From Escherichia coli (lineage in GTDB: Bacteria > Pseudomonadota > Gammaproteobacteria > Enterobacterales > Enterobacteriaceae): 64,000 nucleotides of DNA. The notes beneath the pieces are model-generated. The model saw nothing but the letters and a program-made list of their open reading frames with translations, ran no database searches and was not told the DNA's origin. The stretch lies in assembly GCF_024502345.1 (NCBI RefSeq), contig NZ_JALDNN010000001.1; one strand, written 5' to 3'. The position numbers and the translations under genes were made by a program. Position 1 is the first letter of the stretch. The number at the start of each line of letters is the position of its first letter. Of the stretch, positions 4,087-63,251 are shown piece after piece.

Positions 4087-4785
4087 TTACTCGCCCTGTT
4101 GGCGTTGCAGTCTTGCTAATACATCCTGGGCGCTACTTTTATTGCTACCGCCAATTCCGGCTTCCGCCAGCTTTTCGTCAAGGTCGCGACCGTCTGCGAC
4201 TTTCTCCAACCGTGCGGCAGCATCCAGGCGAGCCTGACGTTCGGCCTGACGCGTTTGCAGGCGTTTTAAGGATTCTGCCGCTGTCGAAACGCTGGAAGAT
4301 GCGCCAACGGTAGAGGTTGTTACAGCCTGTTGTGCACGCTGCATGGCTTCAGTGGCTTTAACGACTTCCATTTGCTGCTCAAACTGAGCGATACGCTGCG
4401 CTGTCGCTGTAACTGCTTTTTCCACGCCATCACGGGAGACTTCCAGATTCGACAACACTTGCTCTTCAGCGGTAATGAGATTCTCAAGGCGCGCGATTTC
4501 TTCAGCAACTTCGTTAATCAACGACGGATTAACGTTCTTGCTTAACGCTTCCAGCGCACGGGCTTCCAGACTGGCTTTGCGCTCACGTAAATCTTTCAGC
4601 TTATCGTGACTTAATTTCACCCGCGCCAGCAGATCAACGCGAGATTTTCCGGCTTTATCGAGTTCAGCTTTAGCGTCACGAATATGCTGTTCCAGCATGC
4701 GCACACCCTGGGTTTCTTCAATGGACTCTTCCGCCTGGGAGATAAACGATTTCCCCAGCGTAAATAAACTTTTTAAAATTCCCAT
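4087..4785 (-). CDS. yjfJ: PspA/IM30-family coiled-coil protein
   Basis: 232-aa ORF, coiled-coil-rich sequence, synteny. Confidence 0.8.
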   Translation of the reverse strand: MGILKSLFTLGKSFISQAEESIEETQGVRMLEQHIRDAKAELDKAGKSRVDLLARVKLSHDKLKDLRERKASLEARALEALSKNVNPSLINEVAEEIARLENLITAEEQVLSNLEVSRDGVEKAVTATAQRIAQFEQQMEVVKATEAMQRAQQAVTTSTVGASSSVSTAAESLKRLQTRQAERQARLDAAARLEKVADGRDLDEKLAEAGIGGSNKSSAQDVLARLQRQQGE

Positions 4786-22678: not shown

Positions 22679-22754
<76 letters not shown>

Positions 22755-22789
22755 TTGGGTGGTCTGTGCCTTACAGCACTTTCAAATTT

Positions 22790-22865
<76 letters not shown>

Positions 22866-22901
22866 TTGGGTGGTCTGTGCTTTGCAGCACTTTTCAAATT
22901 T

Positions 22902-22977
<76 letters not shown>

Positions 22978-37907: not shown

Positions 37908-37929
37908 ATCAGGCTCCGGAGAATTGGGG

Positions 37930-37985
37930 CCGTCCCCGGTGAAAAGACGCGTTTGCAGGTCGTCCTGCAAAGCTGATGGTTGAAC
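37930..37985 (-). ncRNA. Guanidine-II (mini-ykkC) riboswitch in the gdx leader
   Basis: Minus strand carries two short GC stems with ACGR tetraloops: UUGCAGG-ACGA-CCUGCAA (37963-37980) and GGGG-ACGG-CCCC (37936-37947), just upstream of gdx. Confidence 0.7.
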
Positions 37986-52144: not shown

Positions 52145-52220
52145 GCCCGGATAGCTCAGTCGGTAGAGCAGGGGATTGAAAATCCCCGTGTCCTTGGTTC
52201 GATTCCGAGTCCGGGCACCA
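52145..52220 (+). tRNA. pheU: tRNA-Phe (GAA)
   Basis: GCCCGGATAGCTCAGTCGGTAGAGCAGGGGATTGAAAATCCCCGTGTCCTTGGTTCGATTCCGAGTCCGGGCACCA, 76 nt with GAA anticodon. Confidence 0.95.
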
Positions 52221-53071
52221 ATATTCATAAGGCCTCGCTGCAAAGCGGGGCTTTTTCCTTTTCTGGCTACGGTAGATTTCTGGTCGTTGCGGCACGTTAT
52301 TTGTTTGCTGGATTTCTCGCCATTTTCGCAGTTGTTCGTTACTTTTAGACACCTCAACATCCTTTGATGTACCTTTTCCTAACCTCACAGCTACGGTCTT
52401 TCTACGGTCCTCTACGATTCCTTTCTCTCAGAGCATTCATAATAAAGTAGAAAATACGGGGAAAACGGGGGAATTATCATTTCGCCCTAATCCGCAGGTC
52501 TTAACGTGATTTTGTCGCGGGGAATAAGGTGGGGAAATCCCCAATAGCAAGCGGGGAAATCTGGCAGCATACCCCCTCCACCATTCACATGGGGATCTTC
52601 ACCAGTCCGTCCACCTACAACAAGCTCTTCTTGCCCTTTCACTTCTTACCGTTTTCAGAATCCCCCGTTCTCCACGCCATCATAAAATGATTTATCCGTA
52701 AGCTTAACGTAATGGACTGTTGAACCTGAGTGTCCGCTGTGAGCGAAAAGCGGAACTTCTCACATAGGTAATGAAGCGTTTCCTAACGTCAGGGTGTACT
52801 AATCAACGAAGAGCAGGTCAGAGGACTCGAACCGCTTTCCTCTTCCATCTACGTAGAATTCCAAGAATTTATGTGCTTTCCAGTTACAATTTAGCCATGC
52901 TAAGTTAGAAAAAGCATTGAGTACCTTAGGATTGTATCGATGATACTCTAAGGATCTTGGAGGCTTGTGAGGCGTAAGGTTCAAAGCCAATAGTTTATTA
53001 ATAGTCACACAAGTGGCTCTATTTTTCGCCTACAAACCTATATTTTTCATACAAATAAAAGAAGTGTATTT

Positions 53072-54490
53072 ATGAATACTCAGCAAATTAAGGTTGGCAG
53101 TGTACCTGAAATTATTGAGCTATTACCAAACTCTAGCGAGCAGGCTGATTCTCATCCTTTCATCCTATCGGCAAACAGTGCATGGGGTGAACAGGGAGCA
53201 GAAATATCAATAGAGAGATTACGCCAAAATATCGAGCCTTGGCTAACAGCTCTCTTCCAATCCGAACATTTAAATTTATTGATAGGTGCGGGTTTAAGCA
53301 CGTCTATTCAAATATCGGCTACAGATTCACCTCCAGCTGGAATGGGTTGGATCAGCGATCTAGCCGTATGTAAAAGTGAAATAGATGCATTTTCTACTCT
53401 GGCTGCCAAAGCTGCAGGTCGCGATAACGGAAATATAGAAGATCAAATTAGAGCTATTAATGAACTTATTAAAGGGCTTGAAATTCTGACAGTGTTGAAT
53501 ACCCCTCAACCTGAAAATCCTCCAGCTCCTCATGCTGCTTATAGAAATCTAAAAACGGATTTAGAAATACTCAAGGGAGAGCTTTCTCGCTGCCTAGGTG
53601 AGTTTTCAAGATCTGTGAGTGCCGGAGAATACTTGATTAAAACTGCTGAACCAAAGCGTAAAGAGGAAACTTTCAACTATCTAGTTAGTTTCTTGATGAG
53701 CTTTGCAAGTAGGACCGCTACTCGCGATAGGTTGCATATTTTTACAACAAACTATGATCGCATTATTGAAGTAGGTGCTGAGCTTGCTGGTTTGAGACTT
53801 ATAGATCGCTTTGTAGGAAGTATCGCTCCAGTGTTTCGATCTTCAAGATTGGAGGTTGATTATCACTATAATCCTCCAGGAATTCGTGGCGAACCAAGAT
53901 ATTTAGAAGGCGTAGCGCGTTTTACTAAGCTTCATGGATCCCTTGATTGGCATGAACAAAATAGCGCGATTAGGCGCTTTGGTTTACCTTTTGGAGCACG
54001 TTCTGTTGAACCTTTTTTAGAAGCTGAAGGCCATCAAAGCAACAGCTTTGAACAACTTATGATTTACCCTAACTCAGTAAAAGATAGAGAAACTGCCGAG
54101 TACCCTTATGTTGAGCTATTTCGAGATCTAGCCGCAGCAACTAGCCGCCCAAATAGCACATTAGTCACCTATGGCTATAGCTTTGGTGATGAGCATATCA
54201 ACAGGGTAATTGAAGACATGCTTACAGTGCCTTCGACTCATGTAGTCATAATTGCCTTCGGAGATCCGCTTGGAAGAATCATAAATTTCATTAATAAGAG
54301 TGGAAGAAAAGCACAGATCACCCTATTAATGGGAGACCATTTAGGAGACCTCAAGACTTTAGTTGATAACTATTTACCTAAACCAGCTATTGATAAAGCA
54401 TCAATAAAAATGACTGAATTGCTTAAGCAAAGAGGATTTATCCAGCCCAAAGAATTAGGTAATTCAACTGGCTCCGAGGTATCACAATGA
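53072..54490 (+). CDS. SIR2-like NAD-binding protein (candidate NADase effector of a SIR2-HerA defence pair)
   Basis: 472-aa ORF with Rossmann GAGxS (LLIGAGLSTS), a sirtuin TQNID-like motif (FTTNYDRIIE) and a catalytic-His motif (FTKLHGSLDWHE); AT-rich. Confidence 0.7.
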   Translation: MNTQQIKVGSVPEIIELLPNSSEQADSHPFILSANSAWGEQGAEISIERLRQNIEPWLTALFQSEHLNLLIGAGLSTSIQISATDSPPAGMGWISDLAVCKSEIDAFSTLAAKAAGRDNGNIEDQIRAINELIKGLEILTVLNTPQPENPPAPHAAYRNLKTDLEILKGELSRCLGEFSRSVSAGEYLIKTAEPKRKEETFNYLVSFLMSFASRTATRDRLHIFTTNYDRIIEVGAELAGLRLIDRFVGSIAPVFRSSRLEVDYHYNPPGIRGEPRYLEGVARFTKLHGSLDWHEQNSAIRRFGLPFGARSVEPFLEAEGHQSNSFEQLMIYPNSVKDRETAEYPYVELFRDLAAATSRPNSTLVTYGYSFGDEHINRVIEDMLTVPSTHVVIIAFGDPLGRIINFINKSGRKAQITLLMGDHLGDLKTLVDNYLPKPAIDKASIKMTELLKQRGFIQPKELGNSTGSEVSQ

Positions 54491-56520
54491 GTTACTTACC
54501 AATAGAAAGATTAGAACAATTAAGAATTGGATCTGTTGGATTTGTATCACCTAATGAAATTAGAGTTTCTTTAGAGATTGACTCCCCTGATTCAGTGTCA
54601 CTTCAAGGCGGTTCCCCCCGCAATTTTCCTCGAATAAATAGTTATGTACTGATCAGTAGCGATGATGGATTTCTCGTCGGACAGGTTGAATGGATTGCCG
54701 TAGAACACTCTCCATACCCCAAAAGAAGAGGCTTACAAGATTTTGGCTTGATAGATCTTCCTTTTCCACTTAAAAAGCTCAGTATCAATCCCGTTGGTAC
54801 TTTGAGAGTCGATAGAAAAAACGAAGATTACAAGTTCACAAGAGGAACAGATGCTTTTCCCTCGGTTGGTGACTCCGTGCTCCTGCCTACTGACCGGCAA
54901 TTAAAATCAATAATAGAATCAGGTGACAATAGAAGAGTAAAAATAGGGGACAGCCCCCTAGCTAACAATGCGGAAATAAAAGTGGACCCTGATAGGCTTT
55001 TTGGACGACATTTAGCTGTTTTGGGCAATACAGGTAGTGGTAAATCATGCTCGGTTGCGGGGTTAATTCAATGGTCTTTAGATGCTGTTTTACAACAGGG
55101 ACAGATTCCAAATGCTCGGTTCATAATACTTGATCCAAATGGAGAATACAGTAGGGCATTCGGCCCAGAATCAAAATACAAGGGTAAGCTATTACGTGTA
55201 GAAGCTAACACTGGTGCTGAAGAGATAGATCTTAAAGTTCCGTCATGGTTATGGAATAGCTCTGAGTGGGGTGCTTTCACTCAAGCGAGTTCAAAAGTTC
55301 AACTTCCTTTACTACGCCGAGCTTTGAGGGCGATGAGAAATGATGTTTTATCAGAAGATGATGTGACAATCCAAGCGAAACACTTCTGCGGTATCCTACT
55401 CGTATCCATACGACAATTATCAAGCCAAGGCCAGATATATGTGAATGGCGGCCATGCCAAAGGTTTCGTTGATAGTTTAACGTCTTGGAATAATAGCCTG
55501 TCCACATTAAACGACAAAATCGATAACAAACCTTTCGATAATCTAATAAACACGATGAATGTGTATCTTTCCTCTCGTATAGGAATAAAATGGCCTGAAA
55601 AACCTGAAGTTTCAGATACTGATCAGTTGATTAATGAATTAAAAAATGCATATGAAACGCTTGGAGGTGATGAACAAGGACTTCTTCCAAAAAGTGAAGA
55701 TTCGCCTATTCGTTTTAAAGGGGATGATTTTGTCGCATACCTAGAAGCTCTAGCTCAAGAGACAGGCACAGAGCAATTCGTTGAATTCCTTTTGACTCGT
55801 ATTCGAACAATGCTAGGTGACACCCGTATAAGTGCAGTAACAAATGATTCGGAACAGCCTATCAGTTTAACTAATTGGTTAGACACTTTTCTCGGTAGAG
55901 ATGGACAAGGTTCCATAACTGTTATCGATTTATCGCTAGTCCCTAATGAAATAATACATTTGGTAACTGCTGTAATTTCCAGAGTAACTTTTGAAGCATT
56001 ACAACGTTATCGAAGACTTAAGGGGAAACCACTACCAACAGTTATGGTTGCAGAAGAAGCGCATACATTTATTAAACGCTACAAAGAAGATAGTGAGGGT
56101 CAGTCAGTCTCTGACGTATGCTGCAAAGTGTTTGAAAAGATCGCACGTGAAGGCAGGAAATTTGGGTTAGGTCTTGTAGTTTCTTCCCAACGACCCTCAG
56201 AGCTATCTCCGACTGTGTTATCTCAATGTAATACTTTTTTGTTGCACAGGATTAGTAATGATAGAGATCAAGAGCAAGTCCATAGACTTGTTCCCGATAA
56301 CATGAGGGGGTTGTTGAGGGAGTTGCCATCGCTACCATCTCGGCATGCCATTCTACTAGGATGGGCTTCTGAACTTCCGGTTTTAGTTAGAATGAAAGAG
56401 CTTACTGAAAAACAAAGACCACAATCTGACGATCCCGATTTTTGGGATGTGTGGTCTAACACTACAGAAGAGCCTCGCGAAGTTAATTGGCAACCAATAG
56501 CTGATGATTGGCAAAGTTAA
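54487..56520 (+). CDS. HerA/FtsK-like P-loop ATPase (candidate partner of the SIR2-like protein)
   Basis: 677-aa ORF; Walker A LAVLGNTGSGKS, Walker B VMVAEEAHTF, downstream VVSSQRPSEL motif; ATG overlaps the upstream stop (ATGA), consistent with translational coupling. Confidence 0.75.
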   Translation: MSYLPIERLEQLRIGSVGFVSPNEIRVSLEIDSPDSVSLQGGSPRNFPRINSYVLISSDDGFLVGQVEWIAVEHSPYPKRRGLQDFGLIDLPFPLKKLSINPVGTLRVDRKNEDYKFTRGTDAFPSVGDSVLLPTDRQLKSIIESGDNRRVKIGDSPLANNAEIKVDPDRLFGRHLAVLGNTGSGKSCSVAGLIQWSLDAVLQQGQIPNARFIILDPNGEYSRAFGPESKYKGKLLRVEANTGAEEIDLKVPSWLWNSSEWGAFTQASSKVQLPLLRRALRAMRNDVLSEDDVTIQAKHFCGILLVSIRQLSSQGQIYVNGGHAKGFVDSLTSWNNSLSTLNDKIDNKPFDNLINTMNVYLSSRIGIKWPEKPEVSDTDQLINELKNAYETLGGDEQGLLPKSEDSPIRFKGDDFVAYLEALAQETGTEQFVEFLLTRIRTMLGDTRISAVTNDSEQPISLTNWLDTFLGRDGQGSITVIDLSLVPNEIIHLVTAVISRVTFEALQRYRRLKGKPLPTVMVAEEAHTFIKRYKEDSEGQSVSDVCCKVFEKIAREGRKFGLGLVVSSQRPSELSPTVLSQCNTFLLHRISNDRDQEQVHRLVPDNMRGLLRELPSLPSRHAILLGWASELPVLVRMKELTEKQRPQSDDPDFWDVWSNTTEEPREVNWQPIADDWQS

Positions 56521-56941
56521 TTAACTTAACTAATTTTTAGTAGTGTTATAAGTAGTGGCTTATATCTGACATGACAGTTTAGGTTAGTAGTTTCAATCTA
56601 ACAGTAAGTGTCCACGGTGACGTTTTCATACTCAAATCTCCTGAAATGTGGGAGATTTGAGTATGGTTGTCCCTTATGAGCGAGGAGCGGAAGTTCTGCT
56701 TTAAGTGTATCAAACCCTCCAGCAAAGATGTTCTTGAATGTAATGCCATAATTTCCCTAACATTCCAGCACAAATCAATTAACTCTCAGTCCATAGTGTA
56801 TTTTACTTAAATTAAAATCAAATACTCTAGGAATTAAAATAACAAGATCACTTGCGATTATGCTATTTTAAATTAATATTTTTGTTTTTACTGGGGAACC
56901 TTCAAAACACGGAGCCAGATTTCTTCGTAGCTACCCTGTTG

Positions 56942-57766
56942 CTAGGGTTTCAAGTATTCCCCTAAAGGAAAGAAATTTTTTGACAACTTTTGGGATTCAG
57001 CAATTTTAACCAAATAAATATAGAATCCCAACAGAGCACTGTTCTCGCTTTCCCCCCTCGAATAGTGAACATGCCCAGGCACCTTCCGGATGAGGAAACC
57101 ATTATTTTTTACCAAATAATACCCTCTATCTAAAATTGTAATTACATCAGGCATATCATCTAAATCGATATTATTTCCAGTCATGTAATTAAACAGCGAA
57201 TCTCGTAAGGTACTTTCCTCTGGACCTTGGAAGGCTAGTAGTAAGAATGGTGTTTTTCTCAAGGTTGCACACATCCCTGAGATTTCCTCTACTAATTGCA
57301 CTGTATTTTGGGGAATATTTTCTTTCATAAAATAACCATCGTCAATACCGATTGGATTGATTCTTACCAAACCTTTTGACCTAACGCAAGCATCTAAGGT
57401 TGTCTTAAGGTTTGAAGCTCCTTCGGTCATTGAGCCAGTGTTTAATGAAGATTTACATTCAATTAACGCTAAAGCTGAATCGACAGGGACCATACACTGA
57501 TCTTTATCATAACTAAGTTTTAAAGAATGTTTCGAGTATATGATAATATCCATCTGACTTGAGAGATTATCCTTAGAGTCAAAAACCTGTCCTGATGTAA
57601 TATCTAAATTACTAGGGAGATTTGCTTTTAAAAATTCCCTTATTACAATTTCTCTAGCACTTCCTTTGCTACTCCCGTTCGTCGTTATGGATGACAAATT
57701 AAATGCTGAAACCAAAGATGCCGTATGGTTTTTTAAGTGTTTCTGGATTAATTTCATAAAGCTCAT
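56942..57766 (-). CDS. Hypothetical protein, possible PD-(D/E)xK-type nuclease
   Basis: 274-aa AT-rich ORF convergent with the SIR2/HerA operon; contains D...ExK-like residues (QMDIIIY ... ALIECK); start codon uncertain. Confidence 0.4.
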   Translation of the reverse strand: MSFMKLIQKHLKNHTASLVSAFNLSSITTNGSSKGSAREIVIREFLKANLPSNLDITSGQVFDSKDNLSSQMDIIIYSKHSLKLSYDKDQCMVPVDSALALIECKSSLNTGSMTEGASNLKTTLDACVRSKGLVRINPIGIDDGYFMKENIPQNTVQLVEEISGMCATLRKTPFLLLAFQGPEESTLRDSLFNYMTGNNIDLDDMPDVITILDRGYYLVKNNGFLIRKVPGHVHYSRGESENSALLGFYIYLVKIAESQKLSKNFFPLGEYLKP

Positions 57767-58194
57767 TCCATTTTAATTTATCTACATCGCTTAAAGGCAA
57801 ATGATGCCACCGGCTACCAATTAAAAATTATCTCAACCTGAGAGATTTTTCCAGACTCCAAACGAAAATAAAAAACTACTCGTCACGTCCCTCCTGGCAC
57901 ATAGCCGACACCAAAACCAGCAACATATGGACAACGGTCCCTGCCCTGATGGCAGGTAATTGTATCAGACTTAAACACATATTATTTCTGTGAACTCCCC
58001 CCAACGGCAGTCCTTTCCTCTGAAGACCAGAACCAGACCGTAAAGCCTGCTCTTTCTGCATTTCCCGTATTAATTCATACCATGTGGCACCAGCATTCCC
58101 TTCGCCACACCAGAAAATCAATTCCCCAATAAAAAAGTGCCGTGCCGGGGATGGGTCAACCCTGACGTTCTTTACACCAGTCACAGGAGGTTAT

Positions 58195-59379
58195 ATGTCC
58201 ACCCCCAAACGCTTCCGTTTTACTAATCAGCTCATTAAATCCCTGCCCCCTAACACATCCGATGCACGCAGTACCGATGCCGAATACAGCGACACCGAGA
58301 TTTCCGGCCTCAAGTGTCTGGTCAGCAGAAGAGAAGGTCGTAAAAAGTTTTTGCTACGCTACCTTTATCATGGACGAAAACGCGCCATCGCCATTGGTCA
58401 CTGGCCTGAAGTGGACGTCAATCTTGCTCGTCAGATTGCCATAGAACACAAACGTTCCCTTGCCACCGGCACTGACCCTAAGCAGGAGCGTGAAAACAAG
58501 AGAATGGAGCTGACGTTCGATGAACTCTTTAATCAGCATTATCTGCCATGGGCAAAATCCGCTAAACGCAGTTGGGGAAAGGATGTTCAGCGCTACCGCG
58601 ATCATATCCGTCCCGCCATTGGTCAGAGGCTGCTGAGCGATATCACACCAGCGAGCATTCTGCGCCTTCAGCAGACGTTAAGTACTTCCCTGTCAGCAGC
58701 TACCTGTAACCGTGTCATCGTACTCATTAAAGCCGTCTTTACATGGGCCGGAAGGCAAAGCATGACCTCTGTCCATCCGGCAAGGGTGGTACAGCTTCTC
58801 AGGGAGAACAACGCCCGACAGCGCTATTTCACCGAGGACGAAATTCGTCGTATTTTTCTCTCCGCCGATAACGATACCAGCCCCGTCGCGGCCCGCTATG
58901 TCAAACTGTTGTTACTGACCGGCCTTCGTCGTGATGAGCTGCGTCTGGCTAAGTGGGAGCATGTTGACCCGGTTAAACGCACCCTGTGGCTCCCGGAAAC
59001 CAAGAATGGCTATGGGCGGATTGTTCACCTTAACTCACTGGCGATGGACGTAATCAGAACGCTGCCAACGCAGCGGGGAAATCCGTGGTTGTTTATCGGT
59101 AAAAAACAAGGAATGCCGCTGAATAACCCCGTTAAAGCCTTTCAGCGTATCGTTCGTCGGGCGGGAATTTTCGACCAGGAAGTGTGTATTCATACCTGCC
59201 GCCATTCGGTTGCCGCCCTCATCGTGTCCTACGGCGGAACACTGTATGACGTTCAGGCTCAACTGGGGCACCGCAGCAGTCAGTCTTCACAACGTTATGC
59301 GCATCTTCACCCTCAGCGCTTACAAAACACCAGTCAGTTACTGGCGGAAAGGATAACGGCTCAGCTACCGTCCTTGTGA
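58195..59379 (+). CDS. Tyrosine recombinase / phage-type (P4-like) integrase
   Basis: ATG at 58195 preceded by AGGAGG; 394 aa; C-terminal catalytic R..HxxR..Y signature (HTCRHSVAALIVSYGG ... LGHRSSQSSQRYAHL). Confidence 0.85.
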   Translation: MSTPKRFRFTNQLIKSLPPNTSDARSTDAEYSDTEISGLKCLVSRREGRKKFLLRYLYHGRKRAIAIGHWPEVDVNLARQIAIEHKRSLATGTDPKQERENKRMELTFDELFNQHYLPWAKSAKRSWGKDVQRYRDHIRPAIGQRLLSDITPASILRLQQTLSTSLSAATCNRVIVLIKAVFTWAGRQSMTSVHPARVVQLLRENNARQRYFTEDEIRRIFLSADNDTSPVAARYVKLLLLTGLRRDELRLAKWEHVDPVKRTLWLPETKNGYGRIVHLNSLAMDVIRTLPTQRGNPWLFIGKKQGMPLNNPVKAFQRIVRRAGIFDQEVCIHTCRHSVAALIVSYGGTLYDVQAQLGHRSSQSSQRYAHLHPQRLQNTSQLLAERITAQLPSL

Positions 59380-59389
59380 TAACAGAAAA

Positions 59390-59418
59390 GCAGAGGCAAG
59401 TGCCCCTGCTTTTTTTTT
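59390..59418 (+). terminator. Rho-independent terminator between convergent genes
   Basis: Hairpin gcagaggcaagtgcccctgc followed by a run of nine T. Confidence 0.6.
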
Positions 59419-59434
59419 ACTGTTCAGCCATCAG

Positions 59435-59791
59435 TCAGAACGGGATGGCCCCATATTCTTCATCCGGCACCCGGTTATCATCAAATCTGTTATAGAGTTC
59501 ACGAGCACACTCGCGCGCGTCTTTAATAGACATACGAGGGAACCTGCCGAGGGGTTCATAATAGCAGGCCCCTTCAAGCGTATAACGAGCCAGGAATTTA
59601 ATCTCACCGTTGGCAATGACGGCCCGGAGCGCAGGCTCGCTGCCATCGAAGATTTCACGAGAAATGCCGTGATAAAGGCACTCCGCCAGTGTGTTAACCA
59701 GAGCGTAATCATTGAATGAGGTTTTTTCTTCATTTTCGCTGCTGATAGCGTGAGGAAAACCGTCATAGTACTGGTCTGATTCAAAAATCAT
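59435..59791 (-). CDS. Hypothetical protein
   Basis: 118-aa ORF downstream of the replication-like gene; no recognisable motif. Confidence 0.35.
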   Translation of the reverse strand: MIFESDQYYDGFPHAISSENEEKTSFNDYALVNTLAECLYHGISREIFDGSEPALRAVIANGEIKFLARYTLEGACYYEPLGRFPRMSIKDARECARELYNRFDDNRVPDEEYGAIPF

Positions 59792-59840
59792 ACATCACCT
59801 TCTATTGGTTGTTATTCAGTCAAAATGGTTTTATTCAGGG

Positions 59841-61769
59841 TTAAAATTCGGTCATCACATTGCATTTCAGAAACGCTTTTTTGACCTGGTAGTAAGACTG
59901 CGCCATCGTCTTCAGCGCTCTTTTTTTATAGTGTCCGGCACTTTCGCCAAGCAGATAACCGGAACGCTCTAACGGTCTGGCCACATCAACGGTCTTAAGT
60001 CCCTTTTCAGAACAGAGCTTTTCAAACACCGATTCATAAATCAGGAAGTCGCCGGTTTTGTAATGGACGAATCCCCACATATCTCCCGGGCATCGGGCAT
60101 GTTCGTCACGCAGGGTGATAAAGTGCCTGCTGCTTTTTGTCACCAGCGTCAGCTGAAGCTCCTCCAGCATGTTACGCACCGGGTTATACTGATTCTGGTT
60201 ATCATCCAGCCAGCGTCGTGCAGCGGACATAACGGATTCAGCCACCGCATCGCTTTCGAAAGGTAAAAGGCCATATTTCAGCGCCTTCTCTCCTGCCAGC
60301 CATACCAGCGCAAATCTTTTCAGTCCGCGCCGCTGAACGCGGGTAATATCACGCCCCTCATCCCTCAGGGCCTCTTCCAGTGCGTTACAGCAATCATCTG
60401 TCTGTTCCTGGAGCCAGGATGAAAACTCTGCGTAGGTGCGAAGACCGCCAGCCGTATTTTTCCCGGATAACAGTTTGCCGATAAATGCAGGCCCGGCATG
60501 ACCATAAGCCTCTGCCAGCCCCGTCTTCAGTGCATCTGCACGGGCACGTGTTTCTGATACCGGTTCATCCGGTTTTTGAGCATCCTCAGGCAACAGTTCC
60601 ATACTGATGGCCCTGTGCTCCTGCCCTCCCTGTAACACGGCTTTCTGTTCAGCCAGCTTTTCGGAGATTGACATCTCACCGGTGGAGAGAATAAACATGC
60701 GCCATTTAAACGGCTCATCTGCCGTCAGGCCACGGTTCAGGCGCTCTTTTGCCGTACCTGACGTAATGTTGTAAAGCAGTGAGGAAAGTTGCTTATGATT
60801 ACTCGCACCCAGTTCATCGACGCAGGCGACCAGACCGGAATAGTCAGCGAGAAGGCGCTCCATCGCGTTAGGCGTGGTATTCCAGCGAATAATATTTACA
60901 TTCCCCCCACTACCCGGCTCGCTGCCATCACCATGGACCGATGCAGCCAGCATCAGGAGAAGCGTTTTACCGGTGGTGGATACGCCGTGAAAATGAAACA
61001 TGCCCACATCCATACCGGCAGGAACCAGAAGCATCGAAGCAAAGGACGCACTCAGTGCAAAGGTCTGCGCCCAGCCATGGACATTTTCCCGGATGAGGTT
61101 AATCCACTCCTCCAGGGCCCCACCTTTGTGCAGTCCGGGACGCACGCGGAATCCCGGCAGTAGATAATCAAACCCGGTCAGAGAGGTCACAACGGGCTCA
61201 TGACCATGTAAAAAGGCCATATCCTCCGAAACGAATCCCATCGCATCTGCCATCAGATAGACAGGCAGCGGTAAACTCCGGCAGCGCTGAAGAAAACGGT
61301 CAAAAAGGGCAAACTGCTGTGGAGAGGAGCCAACACAAAATCCACGATCTGCCAGTTTGCCTACTACCTGAGCACCGCTCTGAACAATATCCTCAAAGCG
61401 TACCAGGGCCTTAACATACTTACCCAGCCCGTTACCGGTCATCAGGCTGATCCCAAGACCGGACTCCTTATCTTTTCCACAAAACAGGGCGACAGGCACA
61501 ACTGGCGTGGTGCAAACCTGCACAGGTTTCTGTCCACCGATGTAGAAAAGGCCATTAGCCGTATTCACATAATGCCGTGGCAGCCCATCACCAATACCGA
61601 GTGAAGCGATATCATCTTCACCGACCTCAGTGTTTTCAGCACGCCTGATAATTGCTTCCGACATTTTGTTGAAATTTTTATCGCGGTCAGCAAAAGCGCG
61701 AATACGCTTAATCCCGGAAACCTTAGGAACATTAGTTGTCACTTTTTTATTCATGTGTATTACCATCAA
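59841..61769 (-). CDS. P-loop NTPase, putative primase/helicase-like replication protein of an integrative element
   Basis: 642-aa ORF with Walker A (HGVSTTGKTLL) and a DE box (VACVDELG); immediately downstream of an integrase; start codon uncertain. Confidence 0.5.
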   Translation of the reverse strand: MMVIHMNKKVTTNVPKVSGIKRIRAFADRDKNFNKMSEAIIRRAENTEVGEDDIASLGIGDGLPRHYVNTANGLFYIGGQKPVQVCTTPVVPVALFCGKDKESGLGISLMTGNGLGKYVKALVRFEDIVQSGAQVVGKLADRGFCVGSSPQQFALFDRFLQRCRSLPLPVYLMADAMGFVSEDMAFLHGHEPVVTSLTGFDYLLPGFRVRPGLHKGGALEEWINLIRENVHGWAQTFALSASFASMLLVPAGMDVGMFHFHGVSTTGKTLLLMLAASVHGDGSEPGSGGNVNIIRWNTTPNAMERLLADYSGLVACVDELGASNHKQLSSLLYNITSGTAKERLNRGLTADEPFKWRMFILSTGEMSISEKLAEQKAVLQGGQEHRAISMELLPEDAQKPDEPVSETRARADALKTGLAEAYGHAGPAFIGKLLSGKNTAGGLRTYAEFSSWLQEQTDDCCNALEEALRDEGRDITRVQRRGLKRFALVWLAGEKALKYGLLPFESDAVAESVMSAARRWLDDNQNQYNPVRNMLEELQLTLVTKSSRHFITLRDEHARCPGDMWGFVHYKTGDFLIYESVFEKLCSEKGLKTVDVARPLERSGYLLGESAGHYKKRALKTMAQSYYQVKKAFLKCNVMTEF

Positions 61770-61838
61770 ATTACGCCACCGTCAGAAAACGGGTGCATCA
61801 GAACCATAGTTAAAAACCATACCGTTGAGTGAAGGTTG

Positions 61839-63251
61839 TTACCCCATCGCCCGGTTAACGACTTCGTGGTAACGCGCCGGGGAAGCGTGCAAGTAAAGCT
61901 CCGTTACTTTGATAGTGCTGTGACCCAATAAGTCTTTGACGGTGTGAATGTCGGCCCCGCTCTCAATGAGCTTTGTCGCAAAGGTATGACGCATCTCATG
62001 GATGGTGAACGGTGGAATACCCGCAGCCTCACAAAGTCGTTTTTGCAGGCGACGCGGCTCAGCAACCGGATTGTCGGTTCCCTTGCCCGGAAATACCCAG
62101 CCTTCATCACCCAGATGCTGACGCTGTTCTGTCAGAAGAACGAAAGCCTTATCACATACCGGTACACGGCGTAGTTTGCCGTTTTTGGTATGGCGAAGGG
62201 TGATAACCTTGCGGCTCCAGTCCACATCTTCAAGACGAAGGTGACGGGTTTCCCCCAGACGCAGCCCCGTCAGGGCAAGGAACATGAGAAGAGCAAGGGC
62301 TTCATGATCGGGTTTACCATTACGCCAGCGCTCACAGACGTCCATCCAGCGCTGAAGCTGGGAGTCATCCATGGCACGGCGATCTGACGTCACTTCAGGC
62401 AGCGCTTTGATATAAAGCGCCGGAGAGCGGCTGATGTATCCCATGCGTATAGCCCAGGTAAACACCGCTTTAATGAGCGCCAGATGGCGGTTGCGGGTGG
62501 CAGGCTTGAGATCGAGATTATGCAGATAGCTCAGAATATCTGCCTCCGTCATACCTGCCAGCTTTTTGTCACCGAGAAGAGGGCGCAGGTATTTACGGAT
62601 CTTAGAAAGGTCGGTGTTAGCTGAACGCTTAACGCCCGTGCTGAGTACGCTTTTCTCATACTCATCCACAAGCTCATTAAACGTCATTTTACTGTGAGTA
62701 AGAAAACGCTCACCGTAAGCCTCAACGGCGGTCTTGAGCTCCTGAATTATTTTAAAGGCATGCTCCCTTGCATCTTTAATTGAAATTTCCGGGTAGCCTC
62801 CTACGGCAACGTAGATATTCTTTCCGCGAATACTTTTGCGGACAATAAATTTAATGCGACCTGATGGATAGAATATTGCCTTAAGTCCGGTTAACTTCTT
62901 ATCGCTGGTCTCGATTGTTTGTGCAGCTTGTACTGCACGGATTTTATATTCATCAAAAAGGGCTTTAGTAAAAACACCTCCAGTATTTTTAGGTGCAACC
63001 CCTGGATATTCTACAACATCAGATACTCCAGAGTCGGAATACCCCTGAGCTTCCACATCTACATTGAAGGAATTTTTATGAGCAGCTGTGATGCTCTTTT
63101 CATCCAGCACTTGCGTTATTTTATTTAAAGGGTAATTAACTTTCATAATATGTACATGGTCCTCTGAAAATTCAGATGATAATGAGTAATTTAATATGTC
63201 GGCCAACAATGGGATAAGCTTATTTATTCGTGGCATCACTTTCAAGCCCAT
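61839..63251 (-). CDS. Tyrosine recombinase / integrase (second copy, distinct sequence)
   Basis: 470-aa ORF; catalytic signature RLGETRHL ... HEMRHTFATKLIESG ... LGHSTIKVTELYLH. Confidence 0.8.
   Translation of the reverse strand: MGLKVMPRINKLIPLLADILNYSLSSEFSEDHVHIMKVNYPLNKITQVLDEKSITAAHKNSFNVDVEAQGYSDSGVSDVVEYPGVAPKNTGGVFTKALFDEYKIRAVQAAQTIETSDKKLTGLKAIFYPSGRIKFIVRKSIRGKNIYVAVGGYPEISIKDAREHAFKIIQELKTAVEAYGERFLTHSKMTFNELVDEYEKSVLSTGVKRSANTDLSKIRKYLRPLLGDKKLAGMTEADILSYLHNLDLKPATRNRHLALIKAVFTWAIRMGYISRSPALYIKALPEVTSDRRAMDDSQLQRWMDVCERWRNGKPDHEALALLMFLALTGLRLGETRHLRLEDVDWSRKVITLRHTKNGKLRRVPVCDKAFVLLTEQRQHLGDEGWVFPGKGTDNPVAEPRRLQKRLCEAAGIPPFTIHEMRHTFATKLIESGADIHTVKDLLGHSTIKVTELYLHASPARYHEVVNRAMG

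Follow-up and report, generated by a model that had tools for sequence, protein, structure and literature searches.

A Perfect Palindrome Next to a SIR2–HerA Operon of Escherichia coli as the Probable Orphaned Leader Hairpin of a Small Tyrosine Recombinase Gene

Introduction

What is the perfect palindrome located between the convergent genes encoding HerA and a nuclease in an Escherichia coli genomic island? The initial annotation of this locus offered a recombination site, a protein-binding site or a structured RNA element. In work on E. coli and P2/P4 defence hotspots, the way in which cargo moves is either stated to be unclear, with integrase-only islands moving by unknown means (PMC10121019), or left open (PMC9122126). 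If cassettes were moved site-specifically by a recombinase under tight control, the question of cargo movement could be tested directly.

Results

Genomic Context and Geometry of the Palindrome

The window (the whole analysed stretch of 64,000 nucleotides) is the dsbD-dicD(yjdC)-pheU region of E. coli. The features of the locus and the related sites found elsewhere are listed in Table 1. Among complete E. coli genomes, cS33a and fM51a alone have the same island; in cS33a, IS903B is found in place of the DUF6602 nuclease gene. The two P4-type integrases flanking the DUF927 protein (58084–63251) suggest tandem or nested integrative elements at pheU. A tRNA-derived att repeat of the pheU island was considered and rejected, as the window contains no second copy of the 3′ end of the tRNA. 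Elsewhere in the window, a guanidine-II (mini-ykkC) riboswitch (37925–37971, minus strand, 49.3 bits) and three identical tandem tRNA-Gly(GCC) genes of the glyVXY cluster (22679–22977, minus strand) can be noted.

Table 1. Features of the palindrome locus and related sites in other genomes (positions in the window unless another locus is named; the slash marks the stump junction).
Feature	Position	Strand	Description
tRNA-Phe (pheU)	52145–52220	+	integration point of the island carrying the palindrome
Full 24-bp site TTCCGCTT-TTCGCTCA-CAGCGGAC	52732–52755	-	left-hand direct repeat, followed by a diverged, decayed leader
SIR2	53072–54490	+	defence operon with HerA; cargo between two site copies
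HerA	54487–56520	+	defence operon with SIR2 (operon 53072–56520)
Recombinase ORF stump, ATG AAA ACG TCA CCG TGG A...	56611–56629	-	reads MKTSPW
3′ arm GGAGATTTGAGTATG	56627–56641	-	SD GGAG 56641–56638, 8-nt spacer, ATG 56629–56627
9-nt loop CACATTTCA (int sense)	56642–56650	-	CACATTGCA in most E. coli copies
5′ arm CATACTCAAATCTCC (int mRNA sense)	56651–56665	-	anti-Shine–Dalgarno CUCC and CAU complementary to the start codon
Near-complete 24-bp site TTCCGCTC-CTCGCTCA-TAAGGGAC	56669–56692	-	opens the int leader; right-hand direct repeat
DUF6602 / NucC-like PD-DExK nuclease gene	56942–57766	-	cargo upstream of the leader in the int sense
P4-type integrase	58084–59379	+	island gene
DUF927/Cch-HTH protein	59841–61769	-	between the two P4-type integrases
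P4-type integrase	61839–63251	-	island gene
24-bp sites, L001 (Nissle 1917)	293–316, 335–358, 1349–1372, 4561–4584		
24-bp sites, L004	3843–3866, 5017–5040, 5059–5082		
24-bp site, L094	7592–7615		
24-bp site, L185	2149–2172		
Stump junction, window			...CCGTGGA/C
Stump junction, Klebsiella virulence-plasmid type			...CCGTGGAA/T
Stump junction, P2-like Yersinia and E. coli phages			...CCGTGGAA/GGAC; between the cargo gene after gpG and gpFI
Stump junction, IMG/VR contig			...CCGTGGA/G; stump joined directly to the unit right-end site
Stump ends	56611 (window); about 7074 (L007); about 3574 (L185, L186); about 800 (L095)		beside GTGGAA

The palindrome consists of the arms catactcaaatctcc (56627–56641) and ggagatttgagtatg (56651–56665), each 15 nt long and 100% complementary, with a 9-nt loop between them. 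It begins 107 nt past the HerA stop codon (56520); the nuclease gene, on the other side, has its 3′ end 277 nt away. Thus, the perfect 15/9/15 inverted repeat described in the initial annotation is exact in the sequence, and its placement between the convergent genes, next to the right-hand direct repeat, is correct. This direct repeat, TGAGCGARRAGCGGAASTTCT, starts 11 nt to the right of the hairpin (56677–56697) and has a second copy at 52740–52760. The palindrome is the only perfect inverted repeat of at least 15 bp with arms no more than 30 nt apart in the window. When the window was shuffled 20 times, the longest perfect stem reached 9–13 bp, against the 15 bp observed. A different palindrome, TTCCGCGAATACTTTTGCGGAC (62822–62843), with GCGGAC-type ends, is located inside a P4-type integrase gene; its spacer is unrelated and differs in length, and it is probably due to chance.

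The folding energy calculation proposed in the initial annotation gave −22.5 kcal/mol (z = −8.3) for the 45-nt core of the minus-strand RNA and −24.4 kcal/mol (z = −7.4) for that of the plus-strand RNA; none of 200 shuffled cores folded as well. The view that this is not a typical terminator was borne out. The stem is not directly followed by a U-run, as an intrinsic (Rho-independent) terminator would be: a T-run is absent after the palindrome on both strands, the tails read AAAACG on the minus strand and GTTGTCCC on the plus strand, and the stem base is A/U-rich. A terminator scan of the region 56400–57000 found nothing. In a search against Rfam 15, no family reached the gathering threshold, with only a chance-level match to STnc460 (E = 0.76) upstream of the hairpin.

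Homologues of the SIR2–HerA operon with 85% identity sit in P2-like prophage hotspots. Since their match to the window stops at 56572, before the hairpin, the latter lies outside the SIR2–HerA cassette and is not a feature of the HerA/nuclease junction as such.

Homology to the Leader of a Recombinase Gene

A search with the HerA–nuclease spacer of the window as a query indicated that the minus strand of the block 56611–56703 has 92–93% identity to the leader and the first six codons of a gene annotated as a 200-aa ‘site-specific integrase’. This block was matched in 748 E. coli records, which correspond to 744 of the 5426 complete genomes (14%), and all the matches listed are under or beside an annotated ‘site-specific integrase’. 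In the genomes of strains Nissle 1917 and SC407, the match covers approximately 70 nt upstream of the integrase ORF and its first 19 nt, and the annotated 200-aa integrase begins at the ATG that closes the 3′ arm of the palindrome. In the int sense, the minus strand of the window reads CATACTCAAATCTCC-CACATTTCA-GGAGATTTGAGTATG-AAAACGTCACCGTGGA, so one arm of the hairpin contains both a Shine–Dalgarno (SD) sequence and a start codon (GGAG-N8-ATG). In other genomes, whose search was suggested earlier with cassette junctions in mind, the palindrome recurs widely at the starts of integrase genes and also in int-less stumps (see below). Overall, the initial annotation stood in its description, position and rejection of a typical terminator, and it had missed the SD/ATG arm and the integrase stump.

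The homology to intact int genes ends at 56611, after codon 6, and no functional gene follows the hairpin at this locus. No significant match to the int body was found in the window, the best tblastn match being 25 aa long (E = 0.09). Because the ORF breaks at 56611 and the window is devoid of a significant int body, the hairpin is, judging by sequence, the orphaned leader of an apparently deleted integrase gene. The best explanation of the relic is that it marks a former cassette boundary between the SIR2–HerA operon and the nuclease gene. It is probably devoid of present function here. The hairpin itself is classed as a fossil of the ribosome-binding-site (RBS)-sequestering leaders, like those of insertion sequence (IS) transposases.

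The 25-aa tblastn stretch is located at 52860–52934 (plus strand); it contains YLRI and is followed by TAAGGTT, as found after int stops. It belongs to a faint stop-ridden C-terminal recombinase-like remnant (52860–52990, plus strand) between the left site and SIR2. A split integrase similar to that of SSV1 was considered and rejected, as the remnant is too decayed to pair with the stump, which is 94% identical.

The Small Tyrosine Recombinase

The recombinase has a length of 200 aa, and its only Pfam match is the phage-integrase catalytic domain. The scores against the NCBIfam Xer (XerC/XerD), integron and invertase models are far below the cut-offs. More than 8000 homologues were retrieved (7999 of the 8000 candidates scored pass E ≤ 1e-5), and at least 597 stretches of species-representative genomes encode a relative (597 of the 600 matches listed). 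The level of protein identity across Gamma- and Betaproteobacteria is 59–98%. No relative was found in the PDB by sequence, and the AlphaFold model (mean pLDDT 48.6) is too poor for a fold search. No description of the recombinase, its leader or its sites was found in the literature searched, and absence there is no proof of novelty.

Counted from the ATG, a compact conserved ‘int unit’ spans about −65 to about +648, and the DNA on either side of it is unrelated between loci; the ends of the unit are GTCCGCTYYTCGCTCA... and ...CTGTGCCAGAAGCGGAC. Two interpretations of this unit were rejected. For a transposon with terminal inverted repeats, the apparent ‘TIRs’ proved to belong to palindromic sites, whose arms they are, and target duplications were not observed. 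For phase-variable inversion, no int segment opposite to its flanks was found among 933 E. coli records. In most loci and lineages, a G+C-rich stem-loop without a T-run can be noted approximately 10–30 nt past the int stop, before the right-end site (for example, AGGGCTGCAACAGCAGCCCT in the reverse complement of the SC407 locus, L003rc).

Conservation of the Leader Pairing

The leaders of 80 species-level loci, of which 79 are distinct, were compared; their recombinases are 59–98% identical. In nearly all of these divergent leaders, a CUCC–GGAG hairpin recurs, often with the AUG covered, and the flanking arm sequences differ, as in the pairs TCAGACTCC/GGAGTCTGA, CGATCTCC/GGAGATTG, TCAGGCTCCC/GGGAGCCTGA and CAGATTCCTTT/AAAGGAGTCTG. 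A second helix of CAUG with the start codon is present in several lineages. The median predicted pairing probability of the SD is 0.985 in the leaders, whereas it is 0.57 in the controls, for which 92 other GGAG-bearing gene starts of these loci were taken. The SD pairing exceeds 0.9 in 53% of the leaders and in 10% of the controls (p = 3.5e-7). In 36 of 75 leaders, GGAG is preceded by CTCC at a distance of 3–16 nt, compared with 8.5% after shuffling.

The outward stem positions show several types of Watson–Crick pairs each, so that the pairing is conserved via compensatory changes. In an aligned subfamily of 14 sequences, 94.4% of the cells are paired, and both sides have changed in four of the nine pairs; within pairs 7/38 to 11/34, every one-sided change gives G·U or U·G. 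When the structures of this subfamily were slid by 1–3 columns as a control, 22–53% of the cells were paired. A stricter count of internal wobbles gave 11 G·U against 3 A·C, favouring the int-sense strand. A symmetric count that allows loop-proximal pairs, and hence over-extended stems, gave 84 G·U against 86 A·C and is uninformative, as is the whole-leader folding energy, which is lower for the sense than for the antisense strand in 31 of the 79 leaders. Part of the Burkholderiales clade has a small alternative hairpin instead of the anti-SD, and the SD is then only partly covered (pairing about 0.25). Because wide variation of the arms goes together with a highly conserved recombinase, these comparisons argue for an RNA-level constraint on the leader pairing, tied to the translation start, and not for a protein-recognition sequence.

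Palindromic Sites and Cassettes

The direct repeat next to the hairpin belongs to a family of sites with the 24-bp 8-8-8 palindrome GTCCGCTC-N8-GAGCGGAC, located between genes, with TGTGCCAG or CTCGCTCA, in either orientation, as the spacer. The arms of these sites and those of the hairpin have nothing in common. In the Nissle 1917 region, every gene, int included, is bracketed by 24-bp sites. Strain 3-72 is devoid of a 2169-bp segment of the Nissle region, consisting of a 1.1-kb cargo gene, the leader and int; its empty site is the palindrome GTCCGCT-CTGTGCCAGAT-GCGGAC, and at both junctions of the occupied locus CTGTGCCAGRWGCGGAC is found as a direct repeat of 17 bp. In other genomes, the same upstream DNA and int are kept at 99.4%, and the divergence starts exactly at the right end of the int unit. 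Other pheU islands diverge from the window exactly at 52755–52759. The left repeat was also considered as an ‘empty site’ of fused unit ends, and this was rejected, as it aligns better as a full site with a diverged leader (66% ungapped identity).

The rearrangement junctions are at the 24-bp palindromes and at about +20 of int, and never in the loop at 56642–56650. As a recombination site, the direct repeat beside the hairpin is a better candidate than the hairpin itself, and it is more likely that this copy of the 24-bp palindrome is the recombination site.

Sites with exact arms were detected in 83 viral contigs of IMG/VR, about 70 of which have spacers of the TGTGCCAG family. With relaxed criteria, 102 sites were found in 0.89 Mb, against none after shuffling; most of them have no int in cis. 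Recurrent doublets can also be noted, in which a CTCGCTCW-spacer site is followed 18 nt later by a TGTGCCAR-spacer site; they occur in L001 (for example, 293–316 and 335–358), L091, L098, L114, L130 and L179. The putative cassettes are found in genomic islands of E. coli, in hotspots of lambdoid and P2-like prophages and on plasmids of Klebsiella, Pantoea and E. coli, and many of them carry anti-phage genes.

Copies Lacking the Recombinase Gene

Int-less stumps, which consist of the site, the leader, the hairpin and approximately 20 nt of int, have almost identical end points in unrelated contexts (Table 1). A search in PLSDB gave 733 records, of which 565 are from Klebsiella; nearly all the sampled matches cover positions 29–101 of the query. 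The stump is present in about 500 Klebsiella plasmids. The GTGGAA motif beside the stump ends resembles the site arm GCGGAA and is an imperfect inverse of the left arm of the leader. Possibly, the recombinase uses GTGGAA as a pseudo-arm and deletes its own gene, which may result in stable ‘locked’ cargo. The segment from −66 to +20 may also be a discrete attI-like module.

Discussion

The reading we consider probable is that the palindrome is the leader hairpin of the recombinase gene, serving as a translation lock, and that the copy in the window is an orphan relic. Of the options offered initially, the structured RNA element fits this reading. The homology, the position of SD and ATG, the conserved and covarying pairing and the apparent gene loss are read from the sequences; we infer the formation of the hairpin in vivo, a resulting block of initiation and the inertness of the relic. 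On the messenger, the Shine–Dalgarno GGAG, the spacer and the AUG make up the 3′ arm, and the 5′ arm is their exact complement. Because of this complementarity, the folded leader (predicted at −22.5 kcal/mol) would hide the whole translation-initiation region and occlude the 30S binding site. In intact copies, recombinase synthesis would be very low and off by default, and int would be insulated from transcripts reading in out of the upstream cargo gene, as in several insertion sequences. In the window, the recombinase gene would have been lost after codon 6, with the break at 56611 beside GTGGA, a GCGGAA-like motif. An internal promoter like that of IS10 was considered: a consensus scan of the minus strand of 56400–57000 found no sigma-70-like promoter in or just upstream of the hairpin, and the best match by eye in this region was about 7/12.

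Several observations count against a translation lock: no promoter was found in the scan above, the sense strand does not fold with a lower whole-leader energy than the antisense strand, the symmetric wobble count is balanced, and the SD is only partly covered in part of the Burkholderiales clade. The perfect palindrome and the shared end of the stumps count against it as well and speak for a DNA-level element, either a binding site of the recombinase or a host factor or the stem of an attI/attC-like module extending from about −66 to +20, in which case the ‘stumps’ may be complete sites and not truncated genes. A perfect inverted repeat whose spacer is asymmetric, adjoining the gene of a tyrosine recombinase, does resemble a binding site. 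The int-less copies of the window, the Klebsiella plasmids, the P2-like phages and the IMG/VR contig, i.e., at least four contexts, end at +19 to +21 with different flanks, hinting at such a module, and the leader left arm TTCCGC has an imperfect inverted counterpart in GTGGAA at +14 to +19. In one degenerate copy (L090, 5001–5203), the loop is inverted, with TGCAATGTG for CACATTGCA in the int sense, and the orientation of arms and flanks is unchanged; perfect inverted repeats allow small flips of the loop such as this one, and the loop has the usual orientation in all 11 exact copies from viral contigs of IMG/VR. However, the arms are always anchored on the SD and the start codon, and their sequence is free while the recombinases are 60–98% identical. 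The G·U pattern fits RNA of one strand, the spacer has 9 nt, the arms are unrelated to the 8-8-8 sites to which the junctions map, and no junction lies in the loop. Since an attI-like module is conceivable, we regard the DNA-level element as unlikely and nevertheless leave it a noticeable share of the probability.

A factor-independent terminator or 3′-end stabiliser for the SIR2–HerA transcript (plus strand) or the nuclease transcript (minus strand) would suit a strong stem on both strands between convergent genes, all the more so as no other terminator-like site is present in 56400–57000. We rejected a terminator because of the missing T-run and the lack of a match in the terminator scan. 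The A/U-rich stem base, the end of the homology at 56572, which leaves the element out of the SIR2–HerA cassette elsewhere, and the more than 740 genomes that carry the sequence at the 5′ end of a gene and not at the 3′ end also make this whole reading highly improbable. As for a chance palindrome or an assembly artefact, short palindromes do occur and nothing further speaks for it; stems in the shuffled sequences never exceeded 13 bp, and the same 39-mer recurs in hundreds of genomes and plasmids as well as in 11 viral contigs, so this possibility is practically negligible.

The family of 24-bp sites has the appearance of a cassette system on which the small recombinase acts, and the cassette system around the hairpin may be undescribed. 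A broader proposal, which we put forward tentatively and with somewhat less than even confidence, is that the hairpin gates a recombinase running an undescribed integron-like but mechanistically simpler cassette system on 24-bp palindromes bracketing single genes, the int-less stumps being dead-end products that lock the cargo. If true, such a system would explain the swapping of defence cargo at such hotspots. By itself, the hairpin would be a translational lock of a familiar type, here only as a fossil; its value is that of a marker of a very widespread small recombinase and its short palindromic sites, at which neighbouring genes, SIR2–HerA and other defence genes included, are gained, lost and exchanged.

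Comparison with Known Systems

Fold-back inhibition acts on the transposase mRNAs of IS10 and IS50, and similar RBS-sequestering terminal hairpins occur in other insertion sequences. In IS10/IS50-type elements, the gene’s own promoter lies inside the repeat, and native transcripts escape. The likeness lies in a leader stem-loop that pairs the SD and the start codon with an upstream complement, so that transcripts from outside would not be translated and the enzyme level would be very low. In contrast, no internal promoter was found here, the enzyme is a tyrosine recombinase, and the perfect 15-bp stem reaches exactly to the AUG. With the 200-aa tyrosine DNA invertases FimB and FimE, the recombinase shares its size and the catalytic domain as the only recognisable one; however, it scores 25.5 bits with the NCBIfam invertase model, whose cut-off is 222, and no inversion of the int segment was found in 933 E. 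coli records.

The loxP and FRT sites (13-8-13) also have perfect inverted arms and an asymmetric spacer and are located beside a recombinase gene. Unlike them, and unlike dif-like core sites, the palindrome has a 9-nt spacer outside the range of 6–8 bp, its 15-nt arms co-vary with the SD and are not conserved with the recombinase, and the junctions are elsewhere than in the spacer. Nor does it have the features of attC: its perfect stem lacks both extrahelical bases and GTTRRRY, and the recombinase is below the integron and Xer cut-offs.

Integrons (IntI, attI, attC) and the pdif modules of Acinetobacter (XerC/XerD) are similar in having single genes bracketed by palindromes, swaps at these sites and a tyrosine recombinase nearby, although the hairpin under study is not one of the bracketing sites. 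The sites here are of the 8-8-8 type and not folded attC of 57–141 nt or 11-6-11 dif, the 200-aa recombinase consists of the catalytic domain only and is far below the Xer and integron cut-offs, and int itself is bracketed. The surrounding cassette organisation thus resembles that of integrons and pdif modules and differs from it in the recombinase and in the site architecture.
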